DNA from: Minisyncoccia bacterium
GTDB lineage: Bacteria; Patescibacteriota; Minisyncoccia; SW-4-49-11
Direction of reading: 5' to 3'
DNA length: 50,891 nt
NCBI GenBank assembly: GCA_044341565.1
Contig: JBIIRM010000006.1
Location: 1-50,891, forward strand
Positions 13,784-40,786 of this stretch are shown here, piece by piece. The notes under the pieces were generated by a model. That model saw nothing but the letters and a program-made list of their open reading frames with translations. It made no database searches and was not told the DNA's origin. Both the position numbers and the translations under genes were made by a program. The number at the start of each line of letters is the position of its first letter. Position 1 is the first letter of the stretch.

Positions 13784-13817
13784 ATCAATTAGCACATGCT
13801 CAAGGACTATTACTATA

Positions 13818-13840
13818 ATTGGTACTAGGAGAGGGACTCG
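13818..13840 (-). repeat. exact 23-nt copy of the tRNA-Leu(TAA) 3' end (T-loop half, T-stem, acceptor, CCA and 2 nt)
   Basis: attggtactaggagagggactcg is identical to 13973-13995. A looser match extends to 13804 versus 13960 (GGACTATT...). Confidence 0.95.
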
Positions 13841-13972
13841 GTCACAAGTAATTTCCCTGACGGTAAATTCTCGCGACCCCGTCTCGCCGTGTTCGCCTTG
13901 CGCTTAGCGCAAACTCACACATGGCTCCGACCTTCGAGTCCTGCAGGAATAGTCCAAACGGACTATTCCACT
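13841..13972 (-). ncRNA. GC-rich structured segment between the two repeat copies (unclassified RNA or integration relic)
   Basis: Far more GC-rich than its surroundings. Minus-strand helices include GGAATAGTCC-GTTT-GGACTATTCC, TTGCGC-TAA-GCGCAA and CGAGAC-GGG-GTCGCG. A closing helix pairs GGACTC..GGTC with GACC-GAGTCC. There is no terminator between it and the tRNA. Confidence 0.4.
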
Positions 13973-13974
13973 AT

Positions 13975-14062
13975 TGGTACTAGGAGAGGGACTCGAACCC
14001 TCACAGTGTTTAATCACCGACGGATTTTAAGTCCGTTGCGTCTACCATTCCGCCACCCTAGC
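13975..14062 (-). tRNA. tRNA-Leu (anticodon TAA), CCA encoded
   Basis: Hand-folded: acceptor GCTAGGG/TCCTAGT (two G-U pairs), D-arm GCG-GAATGGTAGA-CGC, anticodon loop CTTAAAA, long variable arm, T-arm GAGGG-TTCGAGT-CCCTC. Confidence 0.88.
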
Positions 14063-14109
14063 AGTGTTCAATTATTGTACATTATTTCTGATTGCTTGGC
14101 AAGATAAGC

Positions 14110-15243
14110 CTATCTTATTGCATCGTAACGCTCTAATCTCCCAGATTGCTTTGTAAGAACGGTTTGCCATAATTGGAGATATCCAGATCGAAAACTACCC
14201 GCACAACTAAGAAGATAATATTCCCATATACGATAAAACTTTTCTCCATATTTCTCCTTTAGATCTGGCCAGGATTGTTTAAAATTATCATACCAAGCCA
14301 TAAGTGTTGGGTCATAATCAAGCCCGATATTATGTATGTCTTGTACTGTTAATATGTTTTCCCATGCACCTGACAATTGTTGTATTGAGGGTAATTGCCC
14401 CCCTGGAAATATATACTTATTCATCCAAGCTTCAGGTATTGTGGTGGAGACACTATCCCCAATTGTATGCAATAAAGCCAATCCATCATCTTTTAAATTA
14501 CGATTTACACATTGCATATATTCTCTATAATTCTTATATCCTACATGCTCTATCATTCCAACAGATACGATACGGTCAAATGGCTCAGTTGCAAAGTCTC
14601 GATAATCACTAAATACAATCTCCACTGGCAACTCTTCAAGTATTTTCTCAGCAAATATCTTTTGCTCTTTAGAAATAGTAATTCCAACTCCTACAACCCC
14701 ATAATGTTCGCTTGCAAATTTTAGAAAACCACCCCAACCACAGCCAATATCTAATATTCGCATTCCTTTTTCTAATTTCAATTTACGACAAATTAAATCC
14801 AATTTATCCTCTTGAGCCTGATTGAGAGTTTTAGTATTTTTCCAATACCCACAAGTATATTGCATATAAGGGTCTAAGATAGCCTGATATAAGTCATTTC
14901 CTATATCATAATGCTCTTCTGCAACTTGTTTACTCTTAGTTTTATCTTGTAAATTTAATACCTTACTTTTTAATACATACAAACGATTTTTCCAATTTGC
15001 ATCAAGCACCTGAGACAAAGCCTCCAATACGCGGTATTTTCTAACACGAAACAGAAGCTCATCTAAAGCAATAGTGTCCCACCACTCATCCACATACCCT
15101 TCTCCCACCCCCAAAGAACCATCTCTCAGTATTCGATTCCAGATATCTGGATTTTTAACTTGAAAATCCCAAGACCTATCTCCATTAATTTGTATATCGC
15201 CTAAAGCTAATGCTTTTTTAAAAATATTCTCAACCCGATTCAT
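14110..15243 (-). CDS. cfa: cyclopropane-fatty-acyl-phospholipid synthase family SAM-dependent methyltransferase
   Basis: SAM motif ILDIGCGWGGF, with length and C-terminal pattern typical of the CFA synthase family. Confidence 0.85.
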   Translation of the reverse strand: MNRVENIFKKALALGDIQINGDRSWDFQVKNPDIWNRILRDGSLGVGEGYVDEWWDTIALDELLFRVRKYRVLEALSQVLDANWKNRLYVLKSKVLNLQDKTKSKQVAEEHYDIGNDLYQAILDPYMQYTCGYWKNTKTLNQAQEDKLDLICRKLKLEKGMRILDIGCGWGGFLKFASEHYGVVGVGITISKEQKIFAEKILEELPVEIVFSDYRDFATEPFDRIVSVGMIEHVGYKNYREYMQCVNRNLKDDGLALLHTIGDSVSTTIPEAWMNKYIFPGGQLPSIQQLSGAWENILTVQDIHNIGLDYDPTLMAWYDNFKQSWPDLKEKYGEKFYRIWEYYLLSCAGSFRSGYLQLWQTVLTKQSGRLERYDAIR

Positions 15244-15339
15244 AATGAAATATATTAATTCATATGAGAGTAGGGCATAACCCTAAAGGACTCTTATCAT
15301 CATATTACTCCTATCATTTTTATTTTGCAATACATAGAA

Positions 15340-15355
15340 TGTTCCACATGAAACA
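15340..15355. promoter_or_regulatory. parS-like site with one mismatch
   Basis: TGTTCCACATGAAACA versus the canonical TGTTNCACGTGAAACA, with central G changed to A. Lies 2 nt past the yraN stop. Confidence 0.6.
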
Positions 15356-15357
15356 TT

Positions 15358-15744
15358 CTAGTCAAGACCTTCAAGTATATTGGGATAAAAGCGAATATAG
15401 CTTTTACGATGACAATTATCCACAATACAGCCAATTGCATCGATAGTGATATCCATATTCTCTAATTTCTTCTTCTGCACATAGATTTGAGCCCCCTTTT
15501 TGAGATGTTTAATCTTGCGTGGAGTAATATTATATATCGGAAATTCGAGGTTTTCCACAACTTTTCCACACTTATACACAGTTTTAACTTCTATAATATG
15601 TAAAACCTTATTTTTACTCGCAATAATATCAAGTTCAGATAATTTACCAAGTCGCACATTCTGATCGATAATTTCAAATCCTTTGGATAATAAAAATTTT
15701 ATTGCCAATCTCTCCCCAAGGCTACCTTTATTTTTTGTATCCAT
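15358..15744 (-). CDS. yraN: YraN family (UPF0102) endonuclease-like protein
   Basis: Contains GERLAIKFLLSKGFEIIDQNVR...SELDIIASKNKVLHIIEVKT. The first ATG is at 15744; the ORF-track start is GTG at 15750. Confidence 0.85.
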   Translation of the reverse strand: MDTKNKGSLGERLAIKFLLSKGFEIIDQNVRLGKLSELDIIASKNKVLHIIEVKTVYKCGKVVENLEFPIYNITPRKIKHLKKGAQIYVQKKKLENMDITIDAIGCIVDNCHRKSYIRFYPNILEGLD

Positions 15745-16987
15745 AAACACTAGTATAATACTCTAATATCATAATGACAATAAGCAGCCCCAACCCCATA
15801 AGTCCAATTTCACTCCAAAGCAAAAGCACAATATTATGTACAGGCTCATATTGCCATAACTCTCTTCCCCCACTTGGGAGATTAGCAACATATTGCCCCA
15901 AACCAACACCCCAAAACCAATTATTCATAATCATTTGCCAAGCATCTACTATATAATTAATCCTTTTAGATATTGTTGCGATAATTTGGGGATAAGGGAT
16001 AATGAGAGTAATTAATAGTATTCCCAAAGCACCCACTCTCAATACTATTCTTCCTATACTTCGGATATTATTTTGAAATTGTTCCACGTGGAACAATTGA
16101 GAATTTCTTACTACTGTCAAATATATAATATCTAGTATAAGAGCAAGTATAAAAGCAGTTTTAGAGAATGTTAATAGAATAAGTATATGCAGAAACCAAA
16201 CACTTACTCGAATAAACCATTGGGGAAATTGTATACTTTTCCCATATCCAAGATATAATCCCGTAAGTATAGTAATAGTAAATGCCTGCATAGATGTGAG
16301 TAGATAATGATCCACAAATCCAATAACTAGAAGAATACAAGCATATAATAGTAATGATTGTTTTCGAGTAAATATAGGAGCATATATGATAAGCAGGGCC
16401 ACAAGACCGGCAAAAGCCAAGATATTAGGGTGAGGGAAAGTTCCATATGCCCGAATAAATACATCTCCATTGATGATAGTTTTGGATATTCCTGCTAAAA
16501 GTAGGGATAGGGCCGGCTCGACAACCAGTGGTAAATTAAGACTCTTTTGTAATATACTTTGAGTAATAGCAATTATTGTCTGCCCAAGCATTCCAATAAT
16601 AAAACCCTGAGCAATAAAGGCCAAGGATTTACCCCAATTTTGTAATTGAGATATATACCAGACAATACTTATACCCAAATAGAATCTAAGTCCATAAGTC
16701 CAGCTTATAAGCGGATATTCGGTAAATAATCCTCGCAAAATAAGAACAAAAAAGAGGATTACCCACAACTTATCCACAATATTATTATAACTAAATGGAA
16801 GTTTTTTGGTTATATATATCAAATACCCCCATATCAAAAAAAGTAGTATATCTAGACTATATAGATATATGCTAAAATAGGGAGAATTAACTCCCTGTAG
16901 TGGATAAGCTATAAGAGTTGTGCGTATTAAAAAGGGAACACTAATTCCTATTAATCCCAATACTATTGATATACTTTTATTCTTCAT
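15728..16987 (-). CDS. O-antigen ligase-like (Wzy_C) polytopic membrane protein
   Basis: About 10-12 TM helices and a WFWGVGLGQY motif near the C-terminus. Confidence 0.75.
   Translation of the reverse strand: MKNKSISIVLGLIGISVPFLIRTTLIAYPLQGVNSPYFSIYLYSLDILLFLIWGYLIYITKKLPFSYNNIVDKLWVILFFVLILRGLFTEYPLISWTYGLRFYLGISIVWYISQLQNWGKSLAFIAQGFIIGMLGQTIIAITQSILQKSLNLPLVVEPALSLLLAGISKTIINGDVFIRAYGTFPHPNILAFAGLVALLIIYAPIFTRKQSLLLYACILLVIGFVDHYLLTSMQAFTITILTGLYLGYGKSIQFPQWFIRVSVWFLHILILLTFSKTAFILALILDIIYLTVVRNSQLFHVEQFQNNIRSIGRIVLRVGALGILLITLIIPYPQIIATISKRINYIVDAWQMIMNNWFWGVGLGQYVANLPSGGRELWQYEPVHNIVLLLWSEIGLMGLGLLIVIMILEYYTSVYGYKK
16080..16095. promoter_or_regulatory. parS site (perfect palindrome)
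   Basis: TGTTCCACGTGGAACA, inside the Wzy_C-like CDS (it encodes FHVEQF). Confidence 0.8.
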
Positions 16988-16996
16988 TTCTTTTCT

Positions 16997-17124
16997 TTAT
17001 CCATATTCAGAGTTTCAGTATTCAAGAACAATATATTATGCTATTATAATCATATCATATACAAATATATGGATAACTTGTATAAAACATATACTTATAC
17101 CCAGGTTATCCACAATTATCCATA
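16997..17124. promoter_or_regulatory. cluster of DnaA-box-like 9-mers in a divergent intergenic region
   Basis: TTATCCATA at 16997-17005, TTATCCATA on the minus strand at 17068-17076, TTATACCCA at 17095-17103, perfect TTATCCACA at 17106-17114, and TTATCCATA at 17116-17124. Confidence 0.6.
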
Positions 17125-17134
17125 GCTGAGACGC

Positions 17135-18121
17135 ATGTCATTCAAAAATATTGTCGTTATTGGAGGGGGAACAGGAAGTTTTACCGTATTATCGGGACTT
17201 AAAGTTTTTAATAATCTTAATCTTCAAGCCATTGTTACTATGGCTGATAATGGTGGTTCTACAGGGAAGCTCAGAGACGAGTTAGGAGTTCTCCCTCCGG
17301 GAGATGCACGCCAATGTCTAGTTGCTTTAGCTGAATCTCCTGAAATTTTACGAGAATTATTCAATTATCGATTTAACTCGGGAGAATTATCTGGACATAA
17401 TTTTGGAAATTTATTTTTATCTGCTCTTGAAAAAGTAACAGGGAGTTTTGAAGAGGCTATTAAAACTGCAAGCAGTATATTGTCTATTCGTGGACAAGTA
17501 ATACCCGTAACCACAGAGAATGTTCATTTATCCCTAACTCTTGGGAATGGAGATATTTTATTAGGAGAAGATTGTGTTTCTTCATCTGAAATTCTTTCCC
17601 AGCATACCGTAAAACATATTGAATTAACTCCTGAAACAGAAATTAACCCTAAAGCCTATGATGCTATTATGAAGGCTGATAGCGTGATTATTGGGCCAGG
17701 CAATTTTTATTGTAGTTTAGCTCCTAATATGATTGTACCCGGTATGAAAGAAGCCTTGACCAAGACCTCGGCTCAAATTATCTATAATATAAATTTAATG
17801 TCAAAAGTTGGACATTCTAATAATTGGTCAGTAGAAGATCACATTAATGAATTACATCGATTTATTGGGGCAGAAGTTATAGATATTGCCCTATATAACA
17901 CGACTCAACCCAATAAAGAATTAGTAGAGAAATATAAAGAAGAAGGAGAGCCTGTTGTGAGAGACTCTAAATTAGCTAAGCTCGGTAAAACCACCCTTAT
18001 TGGAGAGGATCTCATTGCGGACACTATATTTATCAATCCCAATAAAAAAGACCCTGTAAGGCGCACTTTAATCCGTCATGATCCTTTAAAGTTAGCTGAG
18101 GCTTTGTATCGGATCATTTAA
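17135..18121 (+). CDS. yvcK: YvcK/CofD-like gluconeogenesis factor family protein (UPF0052)
   Basis: Contains GGGTGSFTVLSGLK, ADNGGSTGKLRDELGVLPPGDARQCLVAL. Confidence 0.9.
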   Translation: MSFKNIVVIGGGTGSFTVLSGLKVFNNLNLQAIVTMADNGGSTGKLRDELGVLPPGDARQCLVALAESPEILRELFNYRFNSGELSGHNFGNLFLSALEKVTGSFEEAIKTASSILSIRGQVIPVTTENVHLSLTLGNGDILLGEDCVSSSEILSQHTVKHIELTPETEINPKAYDAIMKADSVIIGPGNFYCSLAPNMIVPGMKEALTKTSAQIIYNINLMSKVGHSNNWSVEDHINELHRFIGAEVIDIALYNTTQPNKELVEKYKEEGEPVVRDSKLAKLGKTTLIGEDLIADTIFINPNKKDPVRRTLIRHDPLKLAEALYRII

Positions 18122-18175
18122 TATTGTATTTTTGAGATTTTTATGCTATTTTGAAAGAGTTATTTTTCAAGTTTC

Positions 18176-22669: not shown

Positions 22670-22750
22670 AGTGATTGTATTATATATATTCTTAATAATA
22701 GAGCTTGTCTATAGATACAAAAAAGGGAGTAAAGCTTCCTCTCTTTATTT

Positions 22751-22858
22751 CTGGCGGGGACAACCAAAATGTAAACATTTTCCATAACCCCTCGGTTTTG
22801 GTATTCCCGCCACGGGGAAATCCCGTTTCCCGACCCCTTCCCTCGGCCGTCCCTAAAT
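22751..22858. other. GC-rich structured segment starting with a copy of the tRNA-Asp 3' end (unclassified RNA or integration relic)
   Basis: TGGCGGGGAC at 22752-22761 repeats 22888-22897. A 17-bp imperfect hairpin pairs 22752-22769 with 22796-22812, and there is a GGGAAA-N5-TTTCCC hairpin. CCGAGGG occurs twice. The strand is undetermined. Confidence 0.4.
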
Positions 22859-22859: not shown

Positions 22860-22884
22860 AAAAAGAGGAGTATAACTCCTTTTT
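22860..22884. terminator. bidirectional intrinsic terminator immediately after tRNA-Asp
   Basis: AAAAGAGGAG-TATAA-CTCCTTTTT. Confidence 0.8.
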
Positions 22885-22887: not shown

Positions 22888-22964
22888 TGGCGGGGACGGC
22901 CGGGCTCGAACCGGTGACCTTCTGCGTGACAGGCAGACGCTCTAACCAACTGAGCTACGCCCCC
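22888..22964 (-). tRNA. tRNA-Asp (anticodon GTC), CCA encoded
   Basis: Sequence GGGGGCGTAGCTCAGTTGGTTAGAGCGTCTGCCTGTCACGCAGAAGGTCACCGGTTCGAGCCCGGCCGTCCCCGCCA. Confidence 0.92.
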
Positions 22965-24495: not shown

Positions 24496-24556
24496 AATTT
24501 TATTTTTAGAGATATGAACGGTGTCTCCAATCTTATTTTTTCATCCTATTCCGCAG

Positions 24557-24630
24557 TGTCTCCGATTGGGATTGAACCAATAACCTACAGCTTAGAAGGC
24601 TGTTGCTCTATCCAATTGAGCTACGGAGAC
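24557..24630 (-). tRNA. tRNA-Arg (anticodon TCT), CCA not encoded
   Basis: Sequence GTCTCCGTAGCTCAATTGGATAGAGCAACAGCCTTCTAAGCTGTAGGTTATTGGTTCAATCCCAATCGGAGACA. A TTGTAA, 17-nt spacer, TATAAT promoter lies upstream. Confidence 0.9.
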
Positions 24631-26701: not shown

Positions 26702-26741
26702 TATATATCAATATTATATTTTCTCTTTTTACGGATAATTG

Positions 26742-26815
26742 TGGAGGCTCCAAGCAGACTCGCACTGCTGTAGAGGGTTTTGCAGACCCGTGCCTAACTT
26801 CTCGGCCATGGAGCC
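26742..26815 (-). tRNA. tRNA-Cys (anticodon GCA), CCA encoded
   Basis: Sequence GGCTCCATGGCCGAGAAGTTAGGCACGGGTCTGCAAAACCCTCTACAGCAGTGCGAGTCTGCTTGGAGCCTCCA, with discriminator U. Confidence 0.85.
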
Positions 26816-26865
26816 AATTACGGCTTTTAGTATAGCATATATTCAGTTTTTAGGGAAATGATATG

Positions 26866-26898
26866 AGAAAGAAAAAGCCCACCATCCGAAGACGGGGG
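26866..26898 (-). terminator. intrinsic terminator of the GC-rich 75-aa ORF
   Basis: The minus strand reads CCCCCGTC-TTCG-GATGGTGGG (one bulge) followed by CTTTTTCTTTCTC. Confidence 0.6.
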
Positions 26899-26922
26899 TT
26901 TGGGGGAGCTGGCAGTGTAGCG

Positions 26923-27150
26923 CTAGACTTCTCGAGGCATATCCTTGAGGATACGCTCGCGGGAAGCTAGAGCTCCTGTTCTTAACCTTTCCAGAGAGTC
27001 AAGGGTATCTGGAGCCAACCCCCTCAAGAAATCTATTGCGTATGAACTCAATTCCTCGGAGGGAATTGCTCCCAGTGGCGCATAAATGTCGACCATATCA
27101 ATGATCTCTAAAGCCTCGAGGGCTGCATTGATAGGGTTGAGGTTGGACAT
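26923..27150 (-). CDS. hypothetical protein, compositionally atypical (GC3-rich) orphan ORF
   Basis: 75 aa. Codons are strongly C/G-ending (tcc aac ctc aac cct atc ... ctc gag), unlike the neighbours. It has its own promoter and terminator. No family recognised. Confidence 0.6.
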   Translation of the reverse strand: MSNLNPINAALEALEIIDMVDIYAPLGAIPSEELSSYAIDFLRGLAPDTLDSLERLRTGALASRERILKDMPREV

Positions 27151-27176
27151 AGAATAACCAGAATTACGACTTTAAA

Positions 27177-27205
27177 AATATATCATATTTTTCTAATTTT
27201 GTCAA
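27177..27205 (-). promoter_or_regulatory. promoter of the GC-rich 75-aa ORF
   Basis: On the minus strand: TTGACA (27200-27205), 17-nt spacer, TGATATATT extended -10 (hexamer at 27177-27182). Confidence 0.6.
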
Positions 27206-27274
27206 CCCAAAACAACATATTTATTTTTACCTTAGAATGTGTTATAATAGCTCTACATATACTATCTATTCCCT

Positions 27275-27865
27275 ATGCTTAAGCGAAAATCCTCATCTTA
27301 TACTTTTGAACCTATTGAGGAGGGAACTTTACCATTTGATGCCAATGCTAAACGCAATATTACCGATCAACTTGCTTGGGCGAAGAGAGAGGATATACTC
27401 GAGACTATTAATGAAAACAAAATCCCTATATCTCTCTTACTTGTGAATATTGAGAGAGACAACAATATTGGCAATATTATAAGGTCAGCCAATACCTTTG
27501 GGGTAGAGGAGGTGCTTATTTATGGACGCAAGAAATTTGACCGCCGAACTAGTGTTGGAGCTGAATTTTTTATGCAATTTCGGCATATTCGCTTTATAGA
27601 GGAATTAGAGCCTCTCAAACAAGAGTTTGATATTATGCTCGGATTAGAGCAAACTCCTGATTCAGTAGAATTACATTCTTATCAATGGCCTCAAAATACT
27701 AAAATACTCATCGCCATTGGTCATGAGGGTACAGGTCTCCCACCAGAAGTGTTGAGTTTATGTGATCAAACCCTTGAGATAGAACAATACGGCACTACTA
27801 GATCCCTGAATGTATCTGTCGCTACAGGGATTATACTATATGATTATAGAGTGAAAAACCTTTAG
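27275..27865 (+). CDS. SpoU/TrmH family RNA 2'-O-methyltransferase
   Basis: Contains NIGNIIRSANTFGV, IAIGHEGTGLPPEVL and SLNVSVATGIILYD. Confidence 0.85.
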   Translation: MLKRKSSSYTFEPIEEGTLPFDANAKRNITDQLAWAKREDILETINENKIPISLLLVNIERDNNIGNIIRSANTFGVEEVLIYGRKKFDRRTSVGAEFFMQFRHIRFIEELEPLKQEFDIMLGLEQTPDSVELHSYQWPQNTKILIAIGHEGTGLPPEVLSLCDQTLEIEQYGTTRSLNVSVATGIILYDYRVKNL

Positions 27866-27926
27866 TTATAAAACTTGATACCCACTATTAAAACTGGGGT
27901 TTTTATTATATTTCAAATTAATAGAA

Positions 27927-27947
27927 ACCGACTGTATGGCAGTCGGA
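27927..27947 (-). terminator. intrinsic terminator of the 54-aa ORF
   Basis: CCGACTG-N5-CAGTCGG, followed on the minus strand by TTTCTATTAATTT. Confidence 0.55.
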
Positions 27948-27966
27948 GGGTTAAAAGTAAATATAA

Positions 27967-28131
27967 TTAAAAAGATGGAGGAGGGATAGGCATACCCCAC
28001 AGAGCCATAAGACTCTCATGACGGACAAGAGCATATCTTGCCTCAGAATTATTTTTTTGGTCATTATATTTTTTTCTCAAAATATTTAACCCATAAGCAA
28101 AGTGCTGAGCAACAGGATGATTAGCATCCAT
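27967..28131 (-). CDS. hypothetical small protein (54 aa), not in ORF track
   Basis: Sequence MDANHPVAQHFAYGLNILRKKYNDQKNNSEARYALVRHESLMALWGMPIPPPSF. Preceded by TTGATA, 17-nt spacer, TGGTATAGT, and by GGAGGG 4 nt before the ATG. Followed by a terminator. Confidence 0.5.
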   Translation of the reverse strand: MDANHPVAQHFAYGLNILRKKYNDQKNNSEARYALVRHESLMALWGMPIPPPSF

Positions 28132-28210
28132 AATACCCTCCAAAGAGCAAATTGTAAAAAAACTATACCATAAATCTTAAATTTTATCAAAAATTATTAG
28201 CTTTTTTAGC

Positions 28211-28552: not shown

Positions 28553-30049
28553 TTATTTTTTAATCTGCTCATAGACATAGAGAATATCTCCTGTTACTGG
28601 AGTTGTTTTCTTGAAAGATACTGAGAGCACCATTCCACATTCATTACCCTCTGATACATCAGATACATCTTGTTTATCTTGTTGAAGATTGGATAATTTT
28701 CCTTGTACAATAACCTTACCTTCTGAGTTTTCAATTTCAATTAATCCATTGCGTACCATACGCCCAGTTTGTACAATACCTCCCAAAATAAGGCTTTTCT
28801 TATCTTCCTTGAATACTTTCAATACTTTAAGTTCTCCTAAATCGATTCTGGTAACTTTTGGTCCCTCTAATTGAGTGATTTGATCTCGAATTTCATCAAT
28901 TAATTCATAAATAAGCCGATAATATTTGATAGCTACATCCTTGAGTTCAGCTAATTCTTTAATTTTCTTATCTTGTTTAATACCAAATCCTAATATTACC
29001 GCTTGTTGTACTTTTGCTTGAGCAATATCATTAGCAGTAATATCTCCTACTTCTCGTCCTACAATGGTAATTTTAATATCCAGTTGCACAATTTGCCCAA
29101 GAGCATATTCTATAGCATCCAGAGACCCAATAGAATCGGCTTTAATAATAAGATTAAGAGTTTTCTCTTTTTCAAGAAGAGATTGAATAACAGGATTATT
29201 GGCCGGAGGTATTTTGGCAGATTCAATCAAAGCCATAGCATCATTTTCTGAGGCGACTACACGGAATTCATCTCCCGCTGATGCCACGCCTTTTAACCCT
29301 AATATACGAGCAGGCTGTGCTGGTAAAGCCTCTTTTATCATAGCTCCTGCATCATTGGTCATACGGCGGATTTTGCCATATACCGTATTCCCGACCAATA
29401 CCACATCTCCTAATTTTAATTTTCCATTTAATACTACAATATCAGATAATGGTCCTGCTTTAGAATCAAGGAATGACTCCAAAATAAATCCATCGGTTGC
29501 AGCGGGGTTATAATTAGCTTTTAATTCCTCCACTTCTGCTACAAGAGCTATCATTTCGAGAAGTTCTGGAATACCTTCACCACTAACTGAAGATACATTT
29601 TGTACAATGGTTTGTCCTCCCCATTCTTCAGGAGTAAGCTCTAATTCAGCTAAATCAGCTTTGATCTTATCTAATACAAGATTTTGTTTATCAATTTTAG
29701 TAATAGCTACAATAATAGGTAATTGAGTACTTTTAGCAAGTTCAATAGCCTCAAGAGTTTGAGGTTTCACACCCTCGTCTCCCGCAATAACAATAATAAT
29801 AATATCAGCTGTTCTAATTCCACGACTTCGAATAGATTTAAAAGCTTCATGACCAGGAGTATCAATAAAAGTAATAGTAGCATCCTTATGAGATACCTGA
29901 TAAGACCCAATATGTTGGGTAATACCCCCAGCTTCACCTGCAGTTACATTAGCCTTACGAATATAATCGAGAAGACTAGTTTTCCCATGATCAATATGTC
30001 CCATAATGGTGACTATTGGAGGGCGAGGCTGAATAGTTGAATCTGACAT
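28553..30049 (-). CDS. infB: translation initiation factor IF-2 (short form lacking the long N-terminal region)
   Basis: Contains RPPIVTIMGHIDHGKTSLLD, DTPGHEAF and TKIDK, plus the C-terminal beta-barrel domains. Confidence 0.95.
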   Translation of the reverse strand: MSDSTIQPRPPIVTIMGHIDHGKTSLLDYIRKANVTAGEAGGITQHIGSYQVSHKDATITFIDTPGHEAFKSIRSRGIRTADIIIIVIAGDEGVKPQTLEAIELAKSTQLPIIVAITKIDKQNLVLDKIKADLAELELTPEEWGGQTIVQNVSSVSGEGIPELLEMIALVAEVEELKANYNPAATDGFILESFLDSKAGPLSDIVVLNGKLKLGDVVLVGNTVYGKIRRMTNDAGAMIKEALPAQPARILGLKGVASAGDEFRVVASENDAMALIESAKIPPANNPVIQSLLEKEKTLNLIIKADSIGSLDAIEYALGQIVQLDIKITIVGREVGDITANDIAQAKVQQAVILGFGIKQDKKIKELAELKDVAIKYYRLIYELIDEIRDQITQLEGPKVTRIDLGELKVLKVFKEDKKSLILGGIVQTGRMVRNGLIEIENSEGKVIVQGKLSNLQQDKQDVSDVSEGNECGMVLSVSFKKTTPVTGDILYVYEQIKK

Positions 30050-32439: not shown

Positions 32440-34269
32440 ATGGCAAAGAAACAAGCACAAACCACTCCAGAAATTGCTGATTTCCTCAAAGGGCAAAATA
32501 CTCTTCGAGATCTTTTGGCACCTGCAAGTATTTTAGTAGATCCTAAATATATTCAAATTGGTTCTCAATTTGCTCGTACTATTTTTGTGATGACATATCC
32601 TCGATTCCTGGTAACCGGATGGTTTAGCCCACTTATTACCCTAGATTATGTCTTGGATATTTCTATGTTCCTATATCCTATGGATAGTGGGGTTATCTTG
32701 AAGAATCTGAGAACCCAAGTTACCCGCTTTCAGGCTCAAATTAGTATTGCTCAGGAAAAAGGTCTCGTACGCGACCCTATGGTGGAAACGGCTTATCAGG
32801 ATGCTGAGAATCTTAGAGATCAATTACAGCAGGGGACTGAGAGATTTTTCCGCTTTGGACTGTATATTACCGTTTATGCAGATAGCCTACCACAATTAGA
32901 AAAAAATATTGCTCAAATAGACAGTATGCTTCAGACCAAAATGGTATATTCTAAGCCTTGTTTATTCCAAACTGAACAGGGATTCCAATCTACTATTCCT
33001 CTTCTCAAAGATGATTTAGCTATTGCCAATAATCTTAATACATCTCCGCTATCTACTACATTTCCCTTTATTTCTGCCAGTATTTCCTCTAATAAAGGGA
33101 TTCTGTATGGAATTAATCGCCATAATAATAGTCTTATTCTCTTTGATAGATTTTCTATGGAAAATGCCAATGAGGTTATTTTTGCAAAATCAGGAGCAGG
33201 AAAAAGCTATCTGGCTAAGCTTGAAATCTTGAGACATCTTATGCTCAATGTTGATGTTCTTGTGATTGACCCTGAGAATGAATATTCTTATCTTACCGAG
33301 GCCGTAGGCGGAACCTTTATTAAAATATCCCTCAATTCAAATCAGCATATTAATCCTTTTGATTTACCCACACCTCGAGATGATGAGAATCCCGCTGATT
33401 TACTCAAATCTAATATTGCAGATTTATTAAGTATGCTCAAGCTTATGCTTCAAGGGGAGAATGAAAGAGACAAATTTCTTGCTGAAGAAGAGGCGGTATT
33501 AGATAGAGCTTTGTATGAGACATATGCTAGCAAAGATATTAGTCTTGAGTCACCAAATTATGAAAATAAAGATATTCCTACTCTTTCTGACTTAGAGAAT
33601 ATTCTTAATAATATGGAGGGGGGAGAAAGTCTCGCTATTCGACTATCCAAATATACTACTGGGAGCTTTAGTGGTTTTGTGAATGAACCTACCAATATTA
33701 ATTTTGCTAATCAATTAGTAGTATTCAATACTCGAGATATGGAGGATGCACTTCAACCTTTAGCTATGTTTGTCGTAACTCAATATATTTGGAAAGAGAT
33801 TAGAAGAACTCTCAAAAAGCGTATTCTTGTAGTAGATGAGGCCTGGGTTATGATGAAGGATAAGGCTGTAGCATCTTTTCTTTTCTCACTTGCCAAAAGA
33901 GCCCGTAAATATTATCTTGGGCTTACCACTATTACTCAGGATATTGCTGATTTCCTCGCCTCAGAATATGGAAAAGCTATTCTGACCAACTCATCAATAC
34001 AAATTCTCTTGAAACAATCTCCAGCCTCTATAGATATTATTAAAGATACCTTTTATCTTACTGAAGAAGAAAAATTCCTTCTTCTAGAGTCAGATGTGGG
34101 AGAGGGGATATTCTTTGCAGGACTTAAACATGCGGCTATTAAGGTGGTAGCATCATATGGAGAAGATCAGATTATAACCTCGGACCCTGAACAATTACTC
34201 AAGATTCAGGCCGCCAAAGCTCAAGTTACTGACGAAGCTAACTCAGACCCATTCTCATTAAACTTATAA
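32440..34269 (+). CDS. VirB4/TrbE-like type IV secretion ATPase
   Basis: Walker A AKSGAGKSYLAK, then VIDPENEY, and Walker B ILVVDEAW. The preceding region (TIFVMTYPRFLVTGWFSPL) is typical of the VirB4 middle domain. Confidence 0.85.
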   Translation: MAKKQAQTTPEIADFLKGQNTLRDLLAPASILVDPKYIQIGSQFARTIFVMTYPRFLVTGWFSPLITLDYVLDISMFLYPMDSGVILKNLRTQVTRFQAQISIAQEKGLVRDPMVETAYQDAENLRDQLQQGTERFFRFGLYITVYADSLPQLEKNIAQIDSMLQTKMVYSKPCLFQTEQGFQSTIPLLKDDLAIANNLNTSPLSTTFPFISASISSNKGILYGINRHNNSLILFDRFSMENANEVIFAKSGAGKSYLAKLEILRHLMLNVDVLVIDPENEYSYLTEAVGGTFIKISLNSNQHINPFDLPTPRDDENPADLLKSNIADLLSMLKLMLQGENERDKFLAEEEAVLDRALYETYASKDISLESPNYENKDIPTLSDLENILNNMEGGESLAIRLSKYTTGSFSGFVNEPTNINFANQLVVFNTRDMEDALQPLAMFVVTQYIWKEIRRTLKKRILVVDEAWVMMKDKAVASFLFSLAKRARKYYLGLTTITQDIADFLASEYGKAILTNSSIQILLKQSPASIDIIKDTFYLTEEEKFLLLESDVGEGIFFAGLKHAAIKVVASYGEDQIITSDPEQLLKIQAAKAQVTDEANSDPFSLNL

Positions 34270-34275
34270 AATTAT

Positions 34276-36913: not shown

Positions 36914-38088
36914 ACTAATAAGAATAATATAAAGATTAATATATGAGGGAAGAATATACTATTCACAAACATAGAATGGGCCAAAATTAATCCCCAAGAA
37001 CCAATAATAGCCACACCCCAAGTTCTATGCAATCCTCCTAAACCAAGTCTCTTCCAAGCCCGAACTAGAGAGGCCAATACAATAGCTAAGAATAACCCGA
37101 GTCCAATAATTCCACCCGTGAGCCAAAGAGTAAGTATACTACTATCTCGACCCGAAGCAGAATTCAGTTCAGATGGAACCGTAGTTTGGTATTTAATCGT
37201 ATTATACCCAATACCAAATAAAGGACTCCTGTCTATATCACTGAGAGTTTCTCGCCAAGACTGGAGACGCAGAGAAGCTGTCACATCGAGATTAATAGCC
37301 CCTTGAATACGAGTTTGTAAACGCGGACTATTAATCACAATTAAGGATAATATAATGACAATAATTACAAAGGTTTTGCGAGAAATAAGTAAAGTCACCA
37401 GAGTAACTCCAATAAGAAAGGCCAGAAGCGCACTACGAGAATAAGTTAATACCAAAGCTCCGAGTACAATACCTAATCCGGTAATCCATATCAGCAATTG
37501 CCCAATAATAACCTTATTCCATTTTTTTATCTCCTGCAATACTACCAATATACGAGATAATATAATCACAAGAGCAAGCCCAAGAAATCCTCCCAGGAAA
37601 TTAGGATCATACCAAGTAGACAGTAGCCGCCCCTGATGAGGATCCCAACCAAATTGAGCCATAAAAGAAAAGTCTGGGAAAAGGATAAGCTGTATAAATC
37701 CTAATATAGATAACACCACACTAGATACAAAAACCATATACCATAGCTGATTATCTACTCGCTCAGCATTATTATTACGATAATCCACCAGAGGTAATAT
37801 CAGAGCCATATATGCCGCTAATCGGACCCAATATAACAGAGAACCTATTTCCCCACCCACAGCTGGGATAAAACTCAAATGTAAGAATAGAGAACCTAAG
37901 AGATATAAGAGCCAAATCGCAATCAGCACAATAGGTACCGAAAAAGGGAAATCCTTCTGCTTATCTCGAGATACCCACCAATATACCAGATAAATCGGTA
38001 CTAATATATCCGTCAAAACCCCCAAATCACCAATACGGGTAATTTGCCCTGTGATAACGCTAGCTATTAATATCCAATATCCTATCAT
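36910..38088 (-). CDS. O-antigen ligase-like (Wzy_C) polytopic membrane protein
   Basis: Polytopic, with an SPLFGIGYNTIKY motif. Has a 4-nt overlap with the downstream paralog. Confidence 0.75.
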   Translation of the reverse strand: MIGYWILIASVITGQITRIGDLGVLTDILVPIYLVYWWVSRDKQKDFPFSVPIVLIAIWLLYLLGSLFLHLSFIPAVGGEIGSLLYWVRLAAYMALILPLVDYRNNNAERVDNQLWYMVFVSSVVLSILGFIQLILFPDFSFMAQFGWDPHQGRLLSTWYDPNFLGGFLGLALVIILSRILVVLQEIKKWNKVIIGQLLIWITGLGIVLGALVLTYSRSALLAFLIGVTLVTLLISRKTFVIIVIILSLIVINSPRLQTRIQGAINLDVTASLRLQSWRETLSDIDRSPLFGIGYNTIKYQTTVPSELNSASGRDSSILTLWLTGGIIGLGLFLAIVLASLVRAWKRLGLGGLHRTWGVAIIGSWGLILAHSMFVNSIFFPHILIFILFLLV

Positions 38089-38201
38089 ATATTCAGATTA
38101 TATAGCTTCATTATACTCTTTTGTCCAGAATTGTGCTATATGTAAGTGTTTTTTATTCTATAATTATGATATACTATATAAACATAATTAATTATTTCAA
38201 T

Positions 38202-38525
38202 ATGTCTAAAATACCTAAATTCATACTATTTACCCTTATAGGTCTTGGGGTATTTCTTATTATAGGATTTGTTGGAGGAGCTATAGCATTTAATACCCTT
38301 ATTAAGCCGAATATTGCTAATCTTTCTGAACCTGTCGCTAATATATCTGCTCCTATTATTGAAGAAGGAGAACAAATTGCACAAGAAGGAATAGAGCAGG
38401 GAAAACAAGAATCCCAGAATATTATTTCCGAAATTATTCAAGCTAATATGGCTGCAGTTCGAGAACAAATTATCTCTACCTTTACTATTGGAGGAGGAGA
38501 AGGAGAGTCTGAAGGAGGAGAATAA
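38202..38525 (+). CDS. hypothetical membrane-anchored protein with acidic Gly/Glu tail
   Basis: ATG at 38202 (MSKIPKFILFTLIGLGVFLIIGF...GGGEGESEGGE). The ORF-track start is TTG at 38121. Confidence 0.55.
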   Translation: MSKIPKFILFTLIGLGVFLIIGFVGGAIAFNTLIKPNIANLSEPVANISAPIIEEGEQIAQEGIEQGKQESQNIISEIIQANMAAVREQIISTFTIGGGEGESEGGE

Positions 38526-38564
38526 TATATTATCCTACACTACTATTGTGTTTGTTATTAATTA

Positions 38565-38593
38565 TTGACAAAATAATATATTTGTGATATAAT
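38565..38593 (+). promoter_or_regulatory. promoter of GC-rich ORF 38622-38831
   Basis: TTGACA (38565-38570), 17-nt spacer, TGATATAAT (hexamer at 38588-38593). The upstream module TTTGTTATTAATTATTGACAAAATAAT is repeated at 38958-38985. Confidence 0.65.
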
Positions 38594-38621
38594 TATATTA
38601 GATTTGATCCTTTTTAGAACC

Positions 38622-38831
38622 ATGTCTAATACCGTCTCTCCTCTCACCATTCAAGGTAAGGAGATTCAAGTTGGCTCACAGTTCTGGGATGGCCGTATCG
38701 GGTATATAGTCACCTTTATCACAAAAGGTGACTCAATTGCCTTCTCAAGGCTCGATGGTTTACCCCAAACCGCCATGCCCTTCAGTTGGTTCAGGAAATG
38801 GCTAGAACCTCCCGCCAAAAATCCTTCATGA
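38622..38831 (+). CDS. hypothetical protein, compositionally atypical (GC3-rich) orphan ORF
   Basis: 69 aa (MSNTVSPLTIQGKEIQVGSQFWDGRIGYIV...) with C/G-ending codons and a TGA stop. It has its own promoter and terminator. Confidence 0.6.
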   Translation: MSNTVSPLTIQGKEIQVGSQFWDGRIGYIVTFITKGDSIAFSRLDGLPQTAMPFSWFRKWLEPPAKNPS

Positions 38832-38838
38832 GTCCCAA

Positions 38839-38865
38839 AGCTCCGCATCAAGTGGGGCTTTTTTG
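38839..38865 (+). terminator. intrinsic terminator
   Basis: AGCTCCGC-ATCAA-GTGGGGCT followed by TTTTTT. Confidence 0.7.
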
Positions 38866-38866
38866 T

Positions 38867-38953
38867 TTCAATCTAAAACCTCATCAATAATCCCAAATGT
38901 ATTGGCATTAGGAGGAGATTCCAATAATCACTATACCATTTGGTTATATATTT
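38867..38953. repeat. degenerate copy of the ldcA / GT2 convergent gene junction (direct repeat A)
   Basis: The core at 38888-38953 matches 40721-40786 at 63 of 66 nt. On the minus strand it still reads KYITKWYSDYWNLLLMPIHLGLLMRF*, a relic of the GT2 C-terminus. Confidence 0.9.
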
Positions 38954-38969
38954 AAACTTTTGTTATTTA

Positions 38970-38998
38970 TTGACAAAAGTAATTTATTATGGTAATGT
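38970..38998 (+). promoter_or_regulatory. promoter of GC-rich ORF 39064-39618
   Basis: TTGACA (38970-38975), 17-nt spacer, TGGTAATGT (hexamer at 38993-38998). Confidence 0.6.
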
Positions 38999-39063
38999 GT
39001 TTTTGTAAAAATGTACTCCTGTATTATTTTTACAACCTGTTCATTTCACATTTAGAGTTTGTA

Positions 39064-39618
39064 ATGGCTCAAGCAACCCTACTTTTTCAGGCAACCCTGT
39101 ATCCCGAGGCTCCCTTGGGTGATCAGATCATTCCAGCGGTTCCTGGAGAGTTTTATGCATACTCCTCCTACTTCACCGAGGAGAAGTCTGTCTACACTCT
39201 TCTGAAGTGCAAGTCCAACAAATGCCGCAAGGTTGCGGATATGCACTTGCTGGGGAGTGATGTGAATCTGATCTTCACATTCCACCCATTCCAGCTGTAC
39301 TCCATCAAAGGTGCGGTTGATGCTGGGCTGATCAACACCTCTTTCAATACCAGCACCCTCGATGACACCTGGGTCGCCCCCGCCAATATCTCTGCGGAGG
39401 ACTTCTACAATATCTGGCAAGATCATGATGAAACCTCCCTCAAAACCCACTGCCTCAAGGCCTTGGGAAATCCCGAAAACCGGATGTCGGCTCTTTCGAT
39501 CAAACACAATGATGTCATTGCGATGATGACTGGAAGTGGAAAATATGGCATGTTCGTGATCAAAGAACTTCGTTCTGAGGTCATCTTGATCGATGCCTGC
39601 CACATTTTGCTCCAATAA
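39064..39618 (+). CDS. hypothetical protein, compositionally atypical (GC3-rich) orphan ORF
   Basis: 184 aa from ATG at 39064 (MAQATLLFQATLYPEAPLGDQ...). It shows a strong third-position C/G bias (tac tcc tcc tac ttc acc gag gag aag). The first 60 nt contain 32 G+C, versus 22 of 60 at the start of dnaA. It has its own promoter and terminator. The ORF-track start at 38989 lies inside the -10 element. Confidence 0.7.
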   Translation: MAQATLLFQATLYPEAPLGDQIIPAVPGEFYAYSSYFTEEKSVYTLLKCKSNKCRKVADMHLLGSDVNLIFTFHPFQLYSIKGAVDAGLINTSFNTSTLDDTWVAPANISAEDFYNIWQDHDETSLKTHCLKALGNPENRMSALSIKHNDVIAMMTGSGKYGMFVIKELRSEVILIDACHILLQ

Positions 39619-39640
39619 TCCATCAGCTGATCTCTGTTCC

Positions 39641-39667
39641 GCCACCAAGTCTCTTGGTGGCCTTTTT
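39641..39667 (+). terminator. intrinsic terminator
   Basis: GCCACCAAG-TCT-CTTGGTGGC followed by CTTTTT. Confidence 0.85.
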
Positions 39668-39733
39668 ATAAATAATCTAACTATATACATATCCCTTATA
39701 TACTTGTATACTAGTAATAATAATTTAATCTTT

Positions 39734-40723
39734 ATGAATACAATTATACCAAGTCGTCTCAAGCAAGGAGATAAAATAATGATTATATCTCCAGCTGATT
39801 CTTTATTTTTCTTAACTCCAGAGATGCAAAATATTGCCCAAAAGCGATTTCAAAACCTAGGTTTAGAATTAGTTTTTAGTAAAAATGCATATGAAGTTGA
39901 TGAGTTTGATTCTTCTTCTATTAAATTAAGGGTAGAAGATTTACATCAGGCTTTCCTAGACACTAGTATTAAAGGTATTTTTGCCTCTTATGGGGGTTAT
40001 AATAGTAATCAACTCCTACGATATGTTGATTGGGAAATTATTAGAAATAATCCCAAGATTTTTGTTGGTTACTCAGATATTACAGCTTTACAAAATGCTA
40101 TTTTTGCTAAGACAGGACTTATTACATATTCAGGTCCATTATATTCTAATTTCTCTCAAAAATTATATTTTGAATATACTTTAGACTATATTGAAAAATC
40201 TTTATTCCATACTGAAGAATATTCTGTATTACCAAGTGAATCTTGGAGTGATGATAATTGGTATAAAAATCAAGATAATCGTGATTTAATTCCTAATAAT
40301 GGGTGGTTACCTATTAATAAGGGTGAAGCTGAGGGTAGAATTCTTGGAGGAAATCTTTGTACATTTAATCTTCTACAAGGTACTGAGTATTTTCCAGACA
40401 TTACTAATTCCATTCTATTCCTTGAGGATGACTCTGAGGCATCTCTTGGTTTATTTGAAAGAGATTTACAATCTCTCATTCATTTACCAAATTTTAATAC
40501 TGTCAAAGGTATTGTTATTGGAAGATTTCAAAAGGAAAGCAAGGTAGCGGATGATTTACTTATTAAAGTAATTAAATCTAAACGAGAACTATATACTATT
40601 CCTATTATTGCAAATGTAGATTTTGGTCACACTGATCCTAAAATTACTTTCCCTATTGGAGGTAGAGCTAACCTTATTGTGAATGATTCTCAATCTAACC
40701 TAAAACTTTCCTCTCAACAATAA
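39734..40723 (+). CDS. ldcA: LD-carboxypeptidase (peptidase S66, LdcA/MccF family)
   Basis: Contains LKQGDKIMIISPADS, the nucleophile motif VGYSDITAL, and DFGHTDPKITFPIG. The likely start is ATG at 39734, whereas the ORF-track start at 39593 lies inside the previous gene. Confidence 0.85.
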   Translation: MNTIIPSRLKQGDKIMIISPADSLFFLTPEMQNIAQKRFQNLGLELVFSKNAYEVDEFDSSSIKLRVEDLHQAFLDTSIKGIFASYGGYNSNQLLRYVDWEIIRNNPKIFVGYSDITALQNAIFAKTGLITYSGPLYSNFSQKLYFEYTLDYIEKSLFHTEEYSVLPSESWSDDNWYKNQDNRDLIPNNGWLPINKGEAEGRILGGNLCTFNLLQGTEYFPDITNSILFLEDDSEASLGLFERDLQSLIHLPNFNTVKGIVIGRFQKESKVADDLLIKVIKSKRELYTIPIIANVDFGHTDPKITFPIGGRANLIVNDSQSNLKLSSQQ

Positions 40724-40786
40724 TCCCAAATGTATGGGCATTAGGAGGAGATTCCAATAATCACTATACCATTTGGCGATATATTT
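40687..40786. repeat. direct repeat B: the functional ldcA / GT2 convergent junction
   Basis: Covers the last codons of ldcA and the last ~29 codons of the GT2 gene. Matches 38867-38953. Confidence 0.9.

Follow-up and report, generated by a model that had tools for sequence, protein, structure and literature searches.

The contig JBIIRM010000006.1 of a Minisyncoccia bacterium (assembly GCA_044341565.1) was analysed over its full 50,891 nucleotides (nt), and this whole stretch is referred to as the window. It is Parcubacteria/Paceibacteria DNA of the candidate phyla radiation (CPR) with 35% G+C (0.352). It carries the housekeeping genes mutS, mutL, typA, a short infB, pcrA and dnaA/dnaN, as well as a gene for a VirB4-like ATPase and seven tRNA genes. 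Its PcrA protein shares 89% identity with PcrA of a "Candidatus Parcubacteria" metagenome-assembled genome (locus L001). Three of the tRNA genes, tRNA-Leu (site 1), tRNA-Asp (site 2) and tRNA-Arg (site 3), are followed by copies or remnants of clade-specific, GC-rich and hairpin-rich non-coding elements located just 3' of the tRNA. Small protein-coding cassettes are found in a slot beside tRNA-Cys (site 4) and in a variable island next to the glycosyltransferase gene GT2 (site 5). An earlier note on this DNA had described the five sites as a single layout, foreign inserts bracketed by direct repeats of the local host sequence. Our analysis separates the non-coding structured elements of sites 1 to 3 from the protein cassettes of sites 4 and 5.

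Related loci were collected by three routes: a GTDB scan anchored on PcrA, which yielded L001; a metagenome scan anchored on TypA, which yielded L083 to L092; and contigs carrying homologues of ORF184, ORF75 or GT2 (described below), which yielded L081, L082 and L095 to L109. Nucleotide identity to the window is 100% for L100, about 92% for L098, L099 and L083, and 70-80% for L001 and L084 to L090. Site occupancy was compared across 12 related genomes, and repeats of tRNA ends were tested against shuffles of the 250 nt located downstream of each tRNA gene. By this test, the other four tRNA genes of the window have no repeat of their 3' end downstream.

The tRNA-Leu(TAA) gene (13975..14062, minus strand; ARAGORN and Rfam) has a promoter-like site at 14102-14074 according to a promoter scan. 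Its 3' part, from C56 in the T-loop to 2 nt beyond the CCA (13973..13995, minus strand), recurs with 23/23 identical positions at 13818..13840 (minus strand), where a displaced or duplicated tRNA-Leu 3' end is followed by a loose copy of the first half of a hairpin. This hairpin, GGAATAGTCC-GTTT-GGACTATTCC, lies right behind the tRNA (13946..13969, minus strand) and is also found in L084, L088 and L090. It has no T-run in the window and is terminator-like in relatives, and its first half belongs to the loose repeat. The two copies are 155 nt apart, exact over 23 nt and similar over about 37 nt, as the earlier note had described, and no shuffle matched them (p<0.0005). Between them lies the Leu-type trailer element (13841..13941, minus strand; G+C 0.54), predicted to fold into a three-way junction, with GGACTCG paired to CGAGTCC from the second repeat copy in the closing stem. 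The fold has a z score of -3.8, and comparison of the window with L085 and L088 showed that 4 of 4 stem substitutions are compensatory. The element shares 88-90% identity with its counterparts in L085 and L088, while neighbouring genes share about 70%. The tRNA and the element have a single promoter and a single intrinsic terminator (13764..13777, minus strand; terminator scan). Hence the element is probably co-transcribed with tRNA-Leu in the window, and it may persist as a structured trailer RNA.

Occupancy of this site varies among relatives. The window, L085, L088 and L089 share the same structured element, which measures about 105 nt. It is shortened and broken by another repeat in L083, other content is found in L090, and L084 and L087 are empty with a lone tRNA end. 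The repeat consists of host sequence specific to each lineage and varies in length: in L085, it is exact over 53 nt and takes in the spacer and half of the tRNA terminator hairpin, and L088 carries 1.6 tandem units.

The surroundings of tRNA-Leu vary as well. A cyclopropane-fatty-acid synthase gene of host-like G+C (14110-15243) adjoins the tRNA-Leu promoter. This accessory gene is present in the window, L084 and L087 and missing in L083, L085, L088, L089 and L090, where the spacer measures about 190 nt (L085) or about 50-100 nt (the others). Downstream of tRNA-Leu in L085 (11390-12100), L088 (6660-7440) and L090 (16262-17340), each relative carries different small open reading frames (ORFs) with one conserved promoter and 5'-untranslated module (ATAGACAAA...TATGATAT...CTCTAGAKAGATCTAGAGTCAAATTTCCACCC) and one conserved terminator. 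These ORFs look like cassettes swapped between fixed expression signals.

The last 10 nt of the tRNA-Asp gene (22888..22964, minus strand), located at 22888-22897 and reading GTCCCCGCCA, are repeated at 22752..22761 (minus strand), and TCCCCGCCA is kept there in relatives. Compared to shuffles, this repeat has p ~0.003; the repeats claimed for sites 1 and 2 are thus both beyond chance. The Asp-type trailer element (22762..22853, minus strand) contains a conserved core (22777-22844; G+C 0.54) with the hairpin CGGGAAAC-GNRA-GTTTCCCG, and begins at the 5' side with GGGACGGCCG, a sequence complementary to the 3' strand of tRNA-Asp. Terminator hairpins were predicted by the terminator scan on either side of it (22866-22880 and 22724-22740, minus strand). 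The element shares 81-89% identity with those of L001, L084 and L085. The tRNA-Asp site is full in the window and these three relatives, shortened in L083, interrupted in L090 and empty in L087.

The Asp-type core follows the pattern GGGAAGGGGTCGGGAAAC-GNRA-GTTTCCCG...GAAGGAAGG...GGAAACCGTGGGTTT, and its hairpin covaries, including one pair inserted on both sides. A covariance model of this core (model R1) scored 74.5 bits at 22777-22844 and recovered 11 full copies in the clade loci, one in the window; other Paceibacteria loci gave no copy. Besides tRNA-Asp, the core was found behind tRNA-Arg in L001, L090 and L104 and behind tRNA-Ala in L001, followed in each case by the cognate tRNA 3' end. 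Homology between the Leu-type and Asp-type cores was considered and dropped, model R1 missing the Leu type. A closing stem between the 5' end of the Asp-type element and the repeat copy was also dropped, as covariation lends it no support.

At site 3 (24521..24563, minus strand), the tRNA-Arg 3' end GGAGACAC (24556-24563) is followed by a 27-nt AT-rich remnant (24529-24555) and a second GGAGACAC (24521-24528). With 8 nt, the repeat claimed at this tRNA is marginal when taken alone (p ~0.05 against shuffles), and it was rescued by comparison: L098 and L099, the closest relatives, have a single copy and no 27-nt insert, whereas a full element is present in L104 (50-nt exact repeat) and in L001 and L090 (repeats of about 85 nt). 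L083 and L085 carry an element shortened at GGGAAGGGGTCGG, L084 has only a spacer, and the window retains a 35-nt remnant made of the 27-nt insert and the second 8-nt repeat. On these alignments, site 3 of the window is the most decayed form of the tRNA-Arg trailer element of L001, L090 and L104. At tRNA-Ala, L001 carries a clean insertion with a 21-nt repeat, ATCCCAGTCAGGTCCACAGTA, between the tRNA and the (overlapping) start codon of the next gene; a remnant is found in L091, and seven other lineages including the window are empty.

The trailer elements thus measure about 100-150 nt, end with a second copy of the 3' part of the upstream tRNA, and contain one of two unrelated cores. Among the 12 related genomes, they are present, shortened, tandemly amplified or absent, and empty sites hold one copy of the repeat. 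The repeats range from 10 to about 85 nt; those of 21 to about 85 nt are lineage-specific sequence and often reach 30-65 nt past the tRNA into the lineage-specific spacer. In all of the four tRNAs except tRNA-Asp, the repeat begins within the T-loop, at positions 56-58 (Leu, C56; Arg, G57/A58; Ala, A58), which would be unlikely if boundaries fell at random along the tRNA. The same repeats were seen in independently made assemblies (JGI, NCBI, ENA and Logan), and an assembly artefact was dropped as an explanation because the same layouts occur in them.

Furthermore, a stretch of 9-11 nt in front of each core is complementary to the cognate tRNA, in its T-arm or 3' strand: GATCGAACCAG for Ala, GGATCGAAC for Arg, GGGACTYGAA for Leu and GGGACGGCCG for Asp (window 13935-13941 and 22844-22853; L001 13094-13105 and 17258-17270). 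In the Leu type, this segment pairs with the distal repeat copy and covaries with a variant of the tRNA T-loop, changing from C to T exactly where the tRNA changes from G to A. Possible roles of the segment are those of a second recombinase-binding site in inverted orientation, of a guide, or of a component of an RNA fold.

The compensatory changes and the z score of -3.8 in the Leu type, together with the covariation of the Asp-type hairpin, mark the trailer elements as being under structural selection. Such selection also fits the main alternative to mobility, in which the elements are resident, vertically inherited genes for small RNAs in tRNA 3' trailers, whose tRNA-like ends arose by local tandem duplication, as in the tyrT-rtT region of Escherichia coli, and which change only by deletion and unequal crossover. 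Conservation of the fold by compensatory changes, the one promoter and one terminator shared by tRNA-Leu and its element, the 1.6 tandem units of L088, the tRNA-Arg layout with repeats of about 80% identity common to L001, L090 and L104, and the lack of a recombinase domain in the scanned ORFs all agree with it. It does not account for a single core that occurs at three tRNAs, always combined with the end of the tRNA concerned and with a 5' segment complementary to it, nor for the presence of this core in both orientations in mosaics away from tRNAs; some copying to new sites is therefore unavoidable. The clean tRNA-Ala insertion with its 21-nt repeat, found in 2 of 10 lineages, also speaks against strictly vertical descent, as does Rfam, rtT included, which gives no match. 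We consider this alternative rather unlikely, although it is the strongest competitor of the reading that we prefer.

The mosaics in question are larger GC-rich repeats of L086, L088 and L083 in which the Asp-type core is nested in either orientation. They share further modules that recur only in the clade, and no element module was found in about 1.4 Mb of unrelated loci.

The window itself carries a mini inverted-repeat element (4219-4300) with 23-nt arms, GTAGGGGAGACCTTTCAGTCGCC and GGGTGACTGAGAGGTCGCCCCCTAC, separated by 27 nt, which is a mini copy of a mosaic module. The same arms enclose 100-350 nt of GC-rich mosaic sequence in L086, L088, L090, L001 and L104 in a MITE-like arrangement (MITE, miniature inverted-repeat transposable element). 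Another GC-rich insert of about 1-1.5 kb with a common conserved segment occurs at different positions in L083 (8666-9750) and L090 (11807-13307), beside the typA upstream region in one relative and downstream of typA in the other; the window is empty at both positions.

In agreement with the earlier note, which had seen no recombinase in the window, Pfam or NCBIfam scans of most window ORFs of at least 100 amino acids (aa) revealed no recombinase, integrase or transposase domain, four ORFs at 41.5-45.8 kb lying outside these scans and being known by synteny with L107 as a polysaccharide-synthesis membrane protein, YidC, RnpA and DnaA. In the relatives, the 10 of 28 non-syntenic ORFs that were scanned contain no recombinase domain, and most others have precomputed Pfam calls, none of which is a recombinase. 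Neither a phage gene nor a gene of an integrative and conjugative element (ICE) was found at the four tRNA sites in the 12 relatives. Likewise, no ICE or integrative and mobilizable element (IME) with a cognate integrase was found in about 250 kb of related loci, and no RAYT-type transposase (REP-associated tyrosine transposase, REP being repetitive extragenic palindromic sequence) was seen in the window or in the flanks of related loci.

Database searches gave a similar picture. Using both gathering and E-value thresholds, Rfam recognized only tRNAs in the window and 11 related loci. Covariance models gave no match, and motifs were unfit, for transfer-messenger RNA, signal recognition particle RNA, 6S RNA, RNase P RNA, YrlA-like RNAs, group II intron domain V and intron-bearing tRNA. 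IMG/VR contained no match to either element core, the 23-nt inverted-arm module or the ORF184, ORF75 and ORF69 families, save for one chance match inside a P-loop gene; INPHARED phages lacked any match to ORF184 or the two elements, and PLSDB plasmids any match to ORF184. A literature search returned no specific description of a CPR tRNA-repeat element. The suggestion that this is an undescribed family therefore stands only as regards Rfam, phage and plasmid matches, none having been found, and is weakened by the known analogues of its architecture.

The hairpin module TGTCCTCC..GGAGGAGG was found in two viral contigs of IMG/VR, where it is terminator-like between convergent genes. The hairpin module TGTCCTCCYTTGGRGGAGGTG...GGAGGAGGA of the clade mosaic repeats occurs in the viral contigs L110 (919-939) and L111 (5824-5844; G+C 0.43-0.48), again between convergent genes, followed by a T-run and terminator-like. 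L110 and L111 may be phages of this clade.

These searches bear on a second alternative, that the repeats are scars of integrase-bearing prophages or genomic islands that had entered tRNA genes and were deleted down to their att sites. Direct repeats of a tRNA 3' part that start in the T-loop are the classic attL/attR signature, reportedly set out by Williams in 2002. Integrase-less, att-flanked remnants of islands in tRNA genes are well known as cis-mobilizable elements (CIMEs; PMC5704250). Random decay, however, is not expected to leave the same structured core of about 70-100 nt at different tRNAs, and the four tRNA sites of the 12 relatives retain no phage or ICE gene. IMG/VR, INPHARED and PLSDB are also devoid of matches to the cores or ORF184, and IMG/VR of matches to the ORF75 or ORF69 families. 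We regard this origin as very unlikely.

Site 5 lies in a hypervariable island (38121..40694) between Wzy-like genes and the GT2 gene (40700..41491, minus strand; Pfam and homologues), which is the host anchor of the island. L107, whose flanks are 90% identical, has 3.7 kb of unrelated genes at this position, and L108 and L109 likewise carry other cargo after GT2; in these three relatives, the GT2 junction holds one repeat copy and no module. In the window, a non-functional copy of the GT2 3' end (repeat R1, 38880..38953), with a degenerate ldcA 3' end on its left, precedes a 1.83-kb module composed of ORF184 (39064..39618, plus strand; G+C 0.49) and ldcA (39734..40723, plus strand; G+C 0.30), which encodes an LD-carboxypeptidase (Pfam Peptidase_S66). 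ORF184 is preceded by a promoter of its own, and its terminator sequence was recognised by direct reading of the DNA. The module is followed by the functional GT2 3' end (repeat R2, 40713..40786), which overlaps the ldcA stop codon. The two repeats share 95% identity over 74 nt, with looser similarity over about 100 nt, and are 1833 nt apart; the long repeat claimed at this junction is thus real. R1 shares 92-95% identity with the GT2 ends of L107 and L108.

L081 and L082 carry ORF184, ldcA and GT2 in synteny with the window. Identity to the window is 88-98% (L082) or about 86% (L081) for the module and only 70-77% for GT2, with the break in identity within the ldcA 3' end. The left boundary of the module (38948-38954) is the same in the window, L081 and L082, and in the window it abuts the end of R1. 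The order R1-module-R2-GT2, with R1 ending at this boundary, is what would be expected of the single-crossover integration of a 1833-nt circle carrying the module and the GT2 3' end. The same order would also result if two islands had accreted at one att-like site. Since R1 and R2 are 95% identical whereas orthologous modules differ by 8-15%, the duplication is either recent or homogenised, and by this measure R1 is not simply as old as the module. L081 has the module beside GT2 without a recognisable R1 copy, and the contig of L082 stops 44 nt before the module promoter, short of where R1 would lie.

ORF184 belongs to a family of hypothetical proteins found only in Paceibacteria-type genomes. 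Its members occur in unrelated surroundings, and all have a promoter of their own and a similar terminator. Their genes have a G+C of 0.54 and a third-position G+C (GC3) of 0.65 in hosts of 0.34-0.42, being GC-rich in every host. The AlphaFold model of ORF184 has a predicted local distance difference test (pLDDT) score of 87; its best match in the PDB is DUF4466, with a template modelling (TM) score of 0.56, and HmuY/BfrB-like matches are weak, such that no function is assignable. Within the same island, the ORF69 cassette (38622..38831, plus strand; G+C 0.47) also has a promoter and a terminator of its own, both recognised by reading the sequence directly, and belongs to a small family with homologues of 69-110 aa. 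ORF75, ORF69 and ORF184 match nothing in Pfam or PHROGs.

The island lies near the presumed replication origin, judging from the stretch 43683-47266 and the genes in and around it, dnaN (46157-47266; Pfam) and rnpA-yidC and dnaA at 42.9-45.8 kb, the latter three placed by position and synteny with L107 only.

The ORF75 cassette at site 4 (26923..27150, minus strand; G+C 0.49) has its own TTGACA promoter (27205-27200) and, at about 26875-26912, a terminator that was likewise recognised directly in the sequence. Its slot has the conserved order spoU/ORF/tRNA-Cys/pcrA in every homologue-bearing contig found. The promoter and terminator of the slot are conserved and its content varies: L083 and L104 have a longer homologue, L090 has an unrelated GC-rich ORF, and L001 retains only a remnant. 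ORF75 is a member of a small protein family whose orthologues keep a G+C of 0.49. Sliding identity revealed a tract of about 700 nt (26713..27413) with 97-100% identity (about 99%) to L098 and L099 over a background of 88-93% (about 91%). This tract takes in the spoU 5' end, the ORF75 cassette and tRNA-Cys. ORF75 differs from its L098/L099 counterparts at only 2 positions, both synonymous, compared to 8.7% divergence for pcrA. The pattern indicates a recent exchange by homologous recombination rather than a repeat-bounded insertion. Close by, the rbfA-spoU gap (27866-28210) is another variable slot, which holds a gene for an Ltp-lipoprotein in L098, a 108-aa ORF in L099 and a 54-aa ORF in L101 and L103.

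The flanking repeat that had been proposed at site 4 did not survive scrutiny. The similarity between the ORF75 promoter and leader and the tRNA-Cys promoter scores 24, while unrelated promoter pairs of the window score as high or higher (tRNA-Arg/tRNA-Cys and ORF69/ORF75, 26 each); the resemblance is therefore one of promoter consensus, not duplication. Could all repeats be such chance or consensus similarity in AT-rich intergenic DNA, with G+C peaks that merely reflect structured or highly expressed genes? The site 4 score, the recurrence of TTATTGACAAAA promoters at many genes of the clade and the 8-nt repeat of site 3 (p ~0.05) would suit this explanation. It is refuted for sites 1, 2, 3 and 5, the first two and the last being far beyond chance and site 3 being empty in L098 and L099 and full in L104, and repeats recur in independent assemblies. 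It holds for the site 4 repeat only, and as a general account we find it highly improbable.

As for composition, the Leu insert and the Asp core (both 0.54), ORF75, ORF69, ORF184 and the tRNAs form the longest and strongest GC-rich stretches of the window. The description of the inserts as GC-rich thus holds for five of them (0.47-0.54 against 0.352 for the genome) and fails for the site 3 insert (0.31) and ldcA (0.30), which are AT-rich. The foreign origin read from this composition is less secure: the Asp and Leu inserts are conserved across lineages, with compensatory changes in the Leu type, and RNA or DNA structure explains their G+C equally well. Furthermore, the ORF184 family is GC-rich everywhere and ORF75 orthologues remain at 0.49, indicating that composition is a property of these gene families and not the mark of one recent import. 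Integron attC sites and gene cassettes were also considered and rejected, as the cassettes have their own promoters and intrinsic terminators and neither an integrase nor an Rfam or Pfam signal was found.

Taken together, these observations are best explained by two processes, a reading to which we give an even chance: entry of non-autonomous tRNA-trailer elements across the tRNA 3' segment, and exchange of small cassettes by homologous or Campbell-type recombination. For a trailer element, the most probable route of entry is recombination across the tRNA 3' segment through a crossover located in the T-loop. A replacement tRNA end would come in with the new unit, and the original end would stay behind as the distal repeat. 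Unequal recombination between the two repeats could then amplify the unit or delete it, leaving one repeat. The recombinase may be an integrase encoded elsewhere and acting in trans, or host homologous recombination may act on a circularised unit in the manner of Campbell. In the second process, GC-rich cassettes would be self-contained promoter-ORF-terminator units of an accessory gene pool shared among Paceibacteria. Those of the ORF75 type would be exchanged between lineages by homologous recombination through conserved flanks, and the ORF184-ldcA module would have entered as a 1.83-kb circle that included the GT2 3' end and was integrated by a single crossover.

This reading is in keeping with the empty sites that the earlier note had proposed to look for, which hold a single repeat copy at tRNA-Leu (L084, L087), tRNA-Asp (L087), tRNA-Arg (L098, L099), tRNA-Ala (seven lineages) and GT2 (L107 to L109). 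It is also in keeping with the occupancy polymorphism, the presence of one core at several tRNAs, the T-loop boundaries, the covariation, the breaks in identity and the lack of a nearby recombinase. Accordingly, the Campbell- or att-type integration suggested from the window agrees with the discrete, polymorphic inserts of sites 1, 2, 3 and 5 and with the coincidence of the R1 end and the module boundary, and it does not extend to site 4, which has no repeat. The recombination mechanism, a circular intermediate and any function as RNA would each follow from this reading rather than from direct observation.

Several observations weigh against it. No circular or excised junction and no candidate recombinase was seen in the DNA compared, and the related DNA sampled, about 250 kb, is a small sample. 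The tRNA-Asp repeat consists of the last 9-10 nt only and starts outside the T-loop. Repeats of 21-23 nt are barely long enough for RecA-dependent crossover. The cross-lineage identity of the non-coding elements could result from purifying selection on a functional RNA instead of transfer. In L001 and L090, the repeats on either side of the tRNA-Arg element share only about 80% identity and are common to divergent lineages; this insertion is therefore old, and the patchiness could to a large extent be loss, not gain. At site 5, R1 and R2 are 95% identical though the module is syntenic in relatives of about 85% identity, which needs recent re-integration or gene conversion, and ORF75 is, by gene order, syntenic in all relatives that have it.

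A bolder version would see the tRNA-linked units as undescribed, ultra-small (about 100-150 nt) non-autonomous tRNA-homing insertion elements of Paceibacteria. The segment complementary to the cognate tRNA would serve as a guide or an inverted recombinase site, the unit would carry a replacement tRNA 3' end, and the element itself would program its insertion into the T-loop, with catalysis supplied in trans; this system, or natural transformation and RecA, would shuffle the GC-rich cassettes. We view this version as speculative and distinctly unlikely.

CPR/Patescibacteria genomes are very small and are considered poor in classical mobile elements, which bears on how they gain and lose genes. 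In this Parcubacteria clade, variation is concentrated in small tRNA-adjacent slots and in one island close to the presumed replication origin. The units proposed to move are very small: single structured elements of about 100 nt, or sets of one or two genes that have a promoter and a terminator to themselves. They are bounded by copies of host sequence rather than by recombinase genes of their own. If the proposed mechanism is true, integration at tRNA T-loops with a recombinase in trans, or without any, would represent a minimal form of tRNA island. The elements may also be tRNA-trailer RNAs, in which case they would constitute two conserved structured families absent from Rfam. Their complementarity to the cognate tRNA and their very small size are the features most worth attention.

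Elsewhere in the window, the short infB gene (28553-30049) encodes an initiation factor IF-2 of 498 aa without the N-terminal region, and the gene for the VirB4-like conjugal ATPase (32440-34269) is located amid unannotated ORFs.

These loci have close analogues among known systems. With Campbell integration, site 5 shares the order R1-insert-R2-host gene, the coincidence of the R1 end with the left boundary of the insert, and a repeat of 74-100 nt, adequate for homologous recombination; it differs in that no circular form of the site 5 module was seen and in that L081 has the module without R1. REP sequences and bacterial interspersed mosaic elements (BIMEs), BOX elements and Correia- or MITE-type mosaics resemble the clade repeats as GC-rich hairpin modules that are non-autonomous, clade-specific, nested and found in both orientations. 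Unlike them, the tRNA-linked copies lack terminal inverted repeats and a short fixed target duplication, have long direct repeats of tRNA ends instead, and have no known RAYT or transposase.

The tyrT-rtT repeats (PMC3318445) are an analogue of another kind. There too, a unit with the tRNA 3' end is repeated head-to-tail downstream, is co-transcribed and yields a small structured RNA, and the tRNA-Leu unit of the window likewise has one promoter and one terminator, with 1.6 units in L088. In contrast, the elements described here show no sequence or Rfam similarity to rtT, occur at no fewer than four tRNAs with two unrelated cores, and are polymorphic in occupancy among close relatives.

With tRNA-gene islands and CIMEs, the trailer elements share direct repeats of the tRNA 3' part that start in the T-loop at three of four tRNAs, an intact tRNA, the lack of integration genes inside, empty sites with a single copy, and tandem accretion. 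They differ from them by being about 100-150 nt long and non-coding with a conserved structured core, by repeats that run 30-65 nt beyond the tRNA, by the 9-11 nt cognate-complementary segment before the core, and by the lack of a visible parental ICE, IME or prophage; unlike islands and prophages of the tyrosine-integrase type, whose repeats begin in the anticodon loop or T-loop and which carry an integrase gene beside one att site, they enclose no integrase gene. Prochlorococcus tycheposons, the subject of Hackl et al. 2023, are said to have partial tRNA repeats at island hot spots. The ssrA (tmRNA) islands of Dehalococcoides (PMC3146451) contain arrays of partial-gene repeats between cargo modules. 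Both share with the loci described here repeated integration at the 3' end of a small RNA gene, partial-gene repeats between cargo, and some modules without an integrase. Those islands are kilobases long and have integrases in at least some modules, whereas the units of this Paceibacteria clade consist of one RNA-like element or of one or two small genes.

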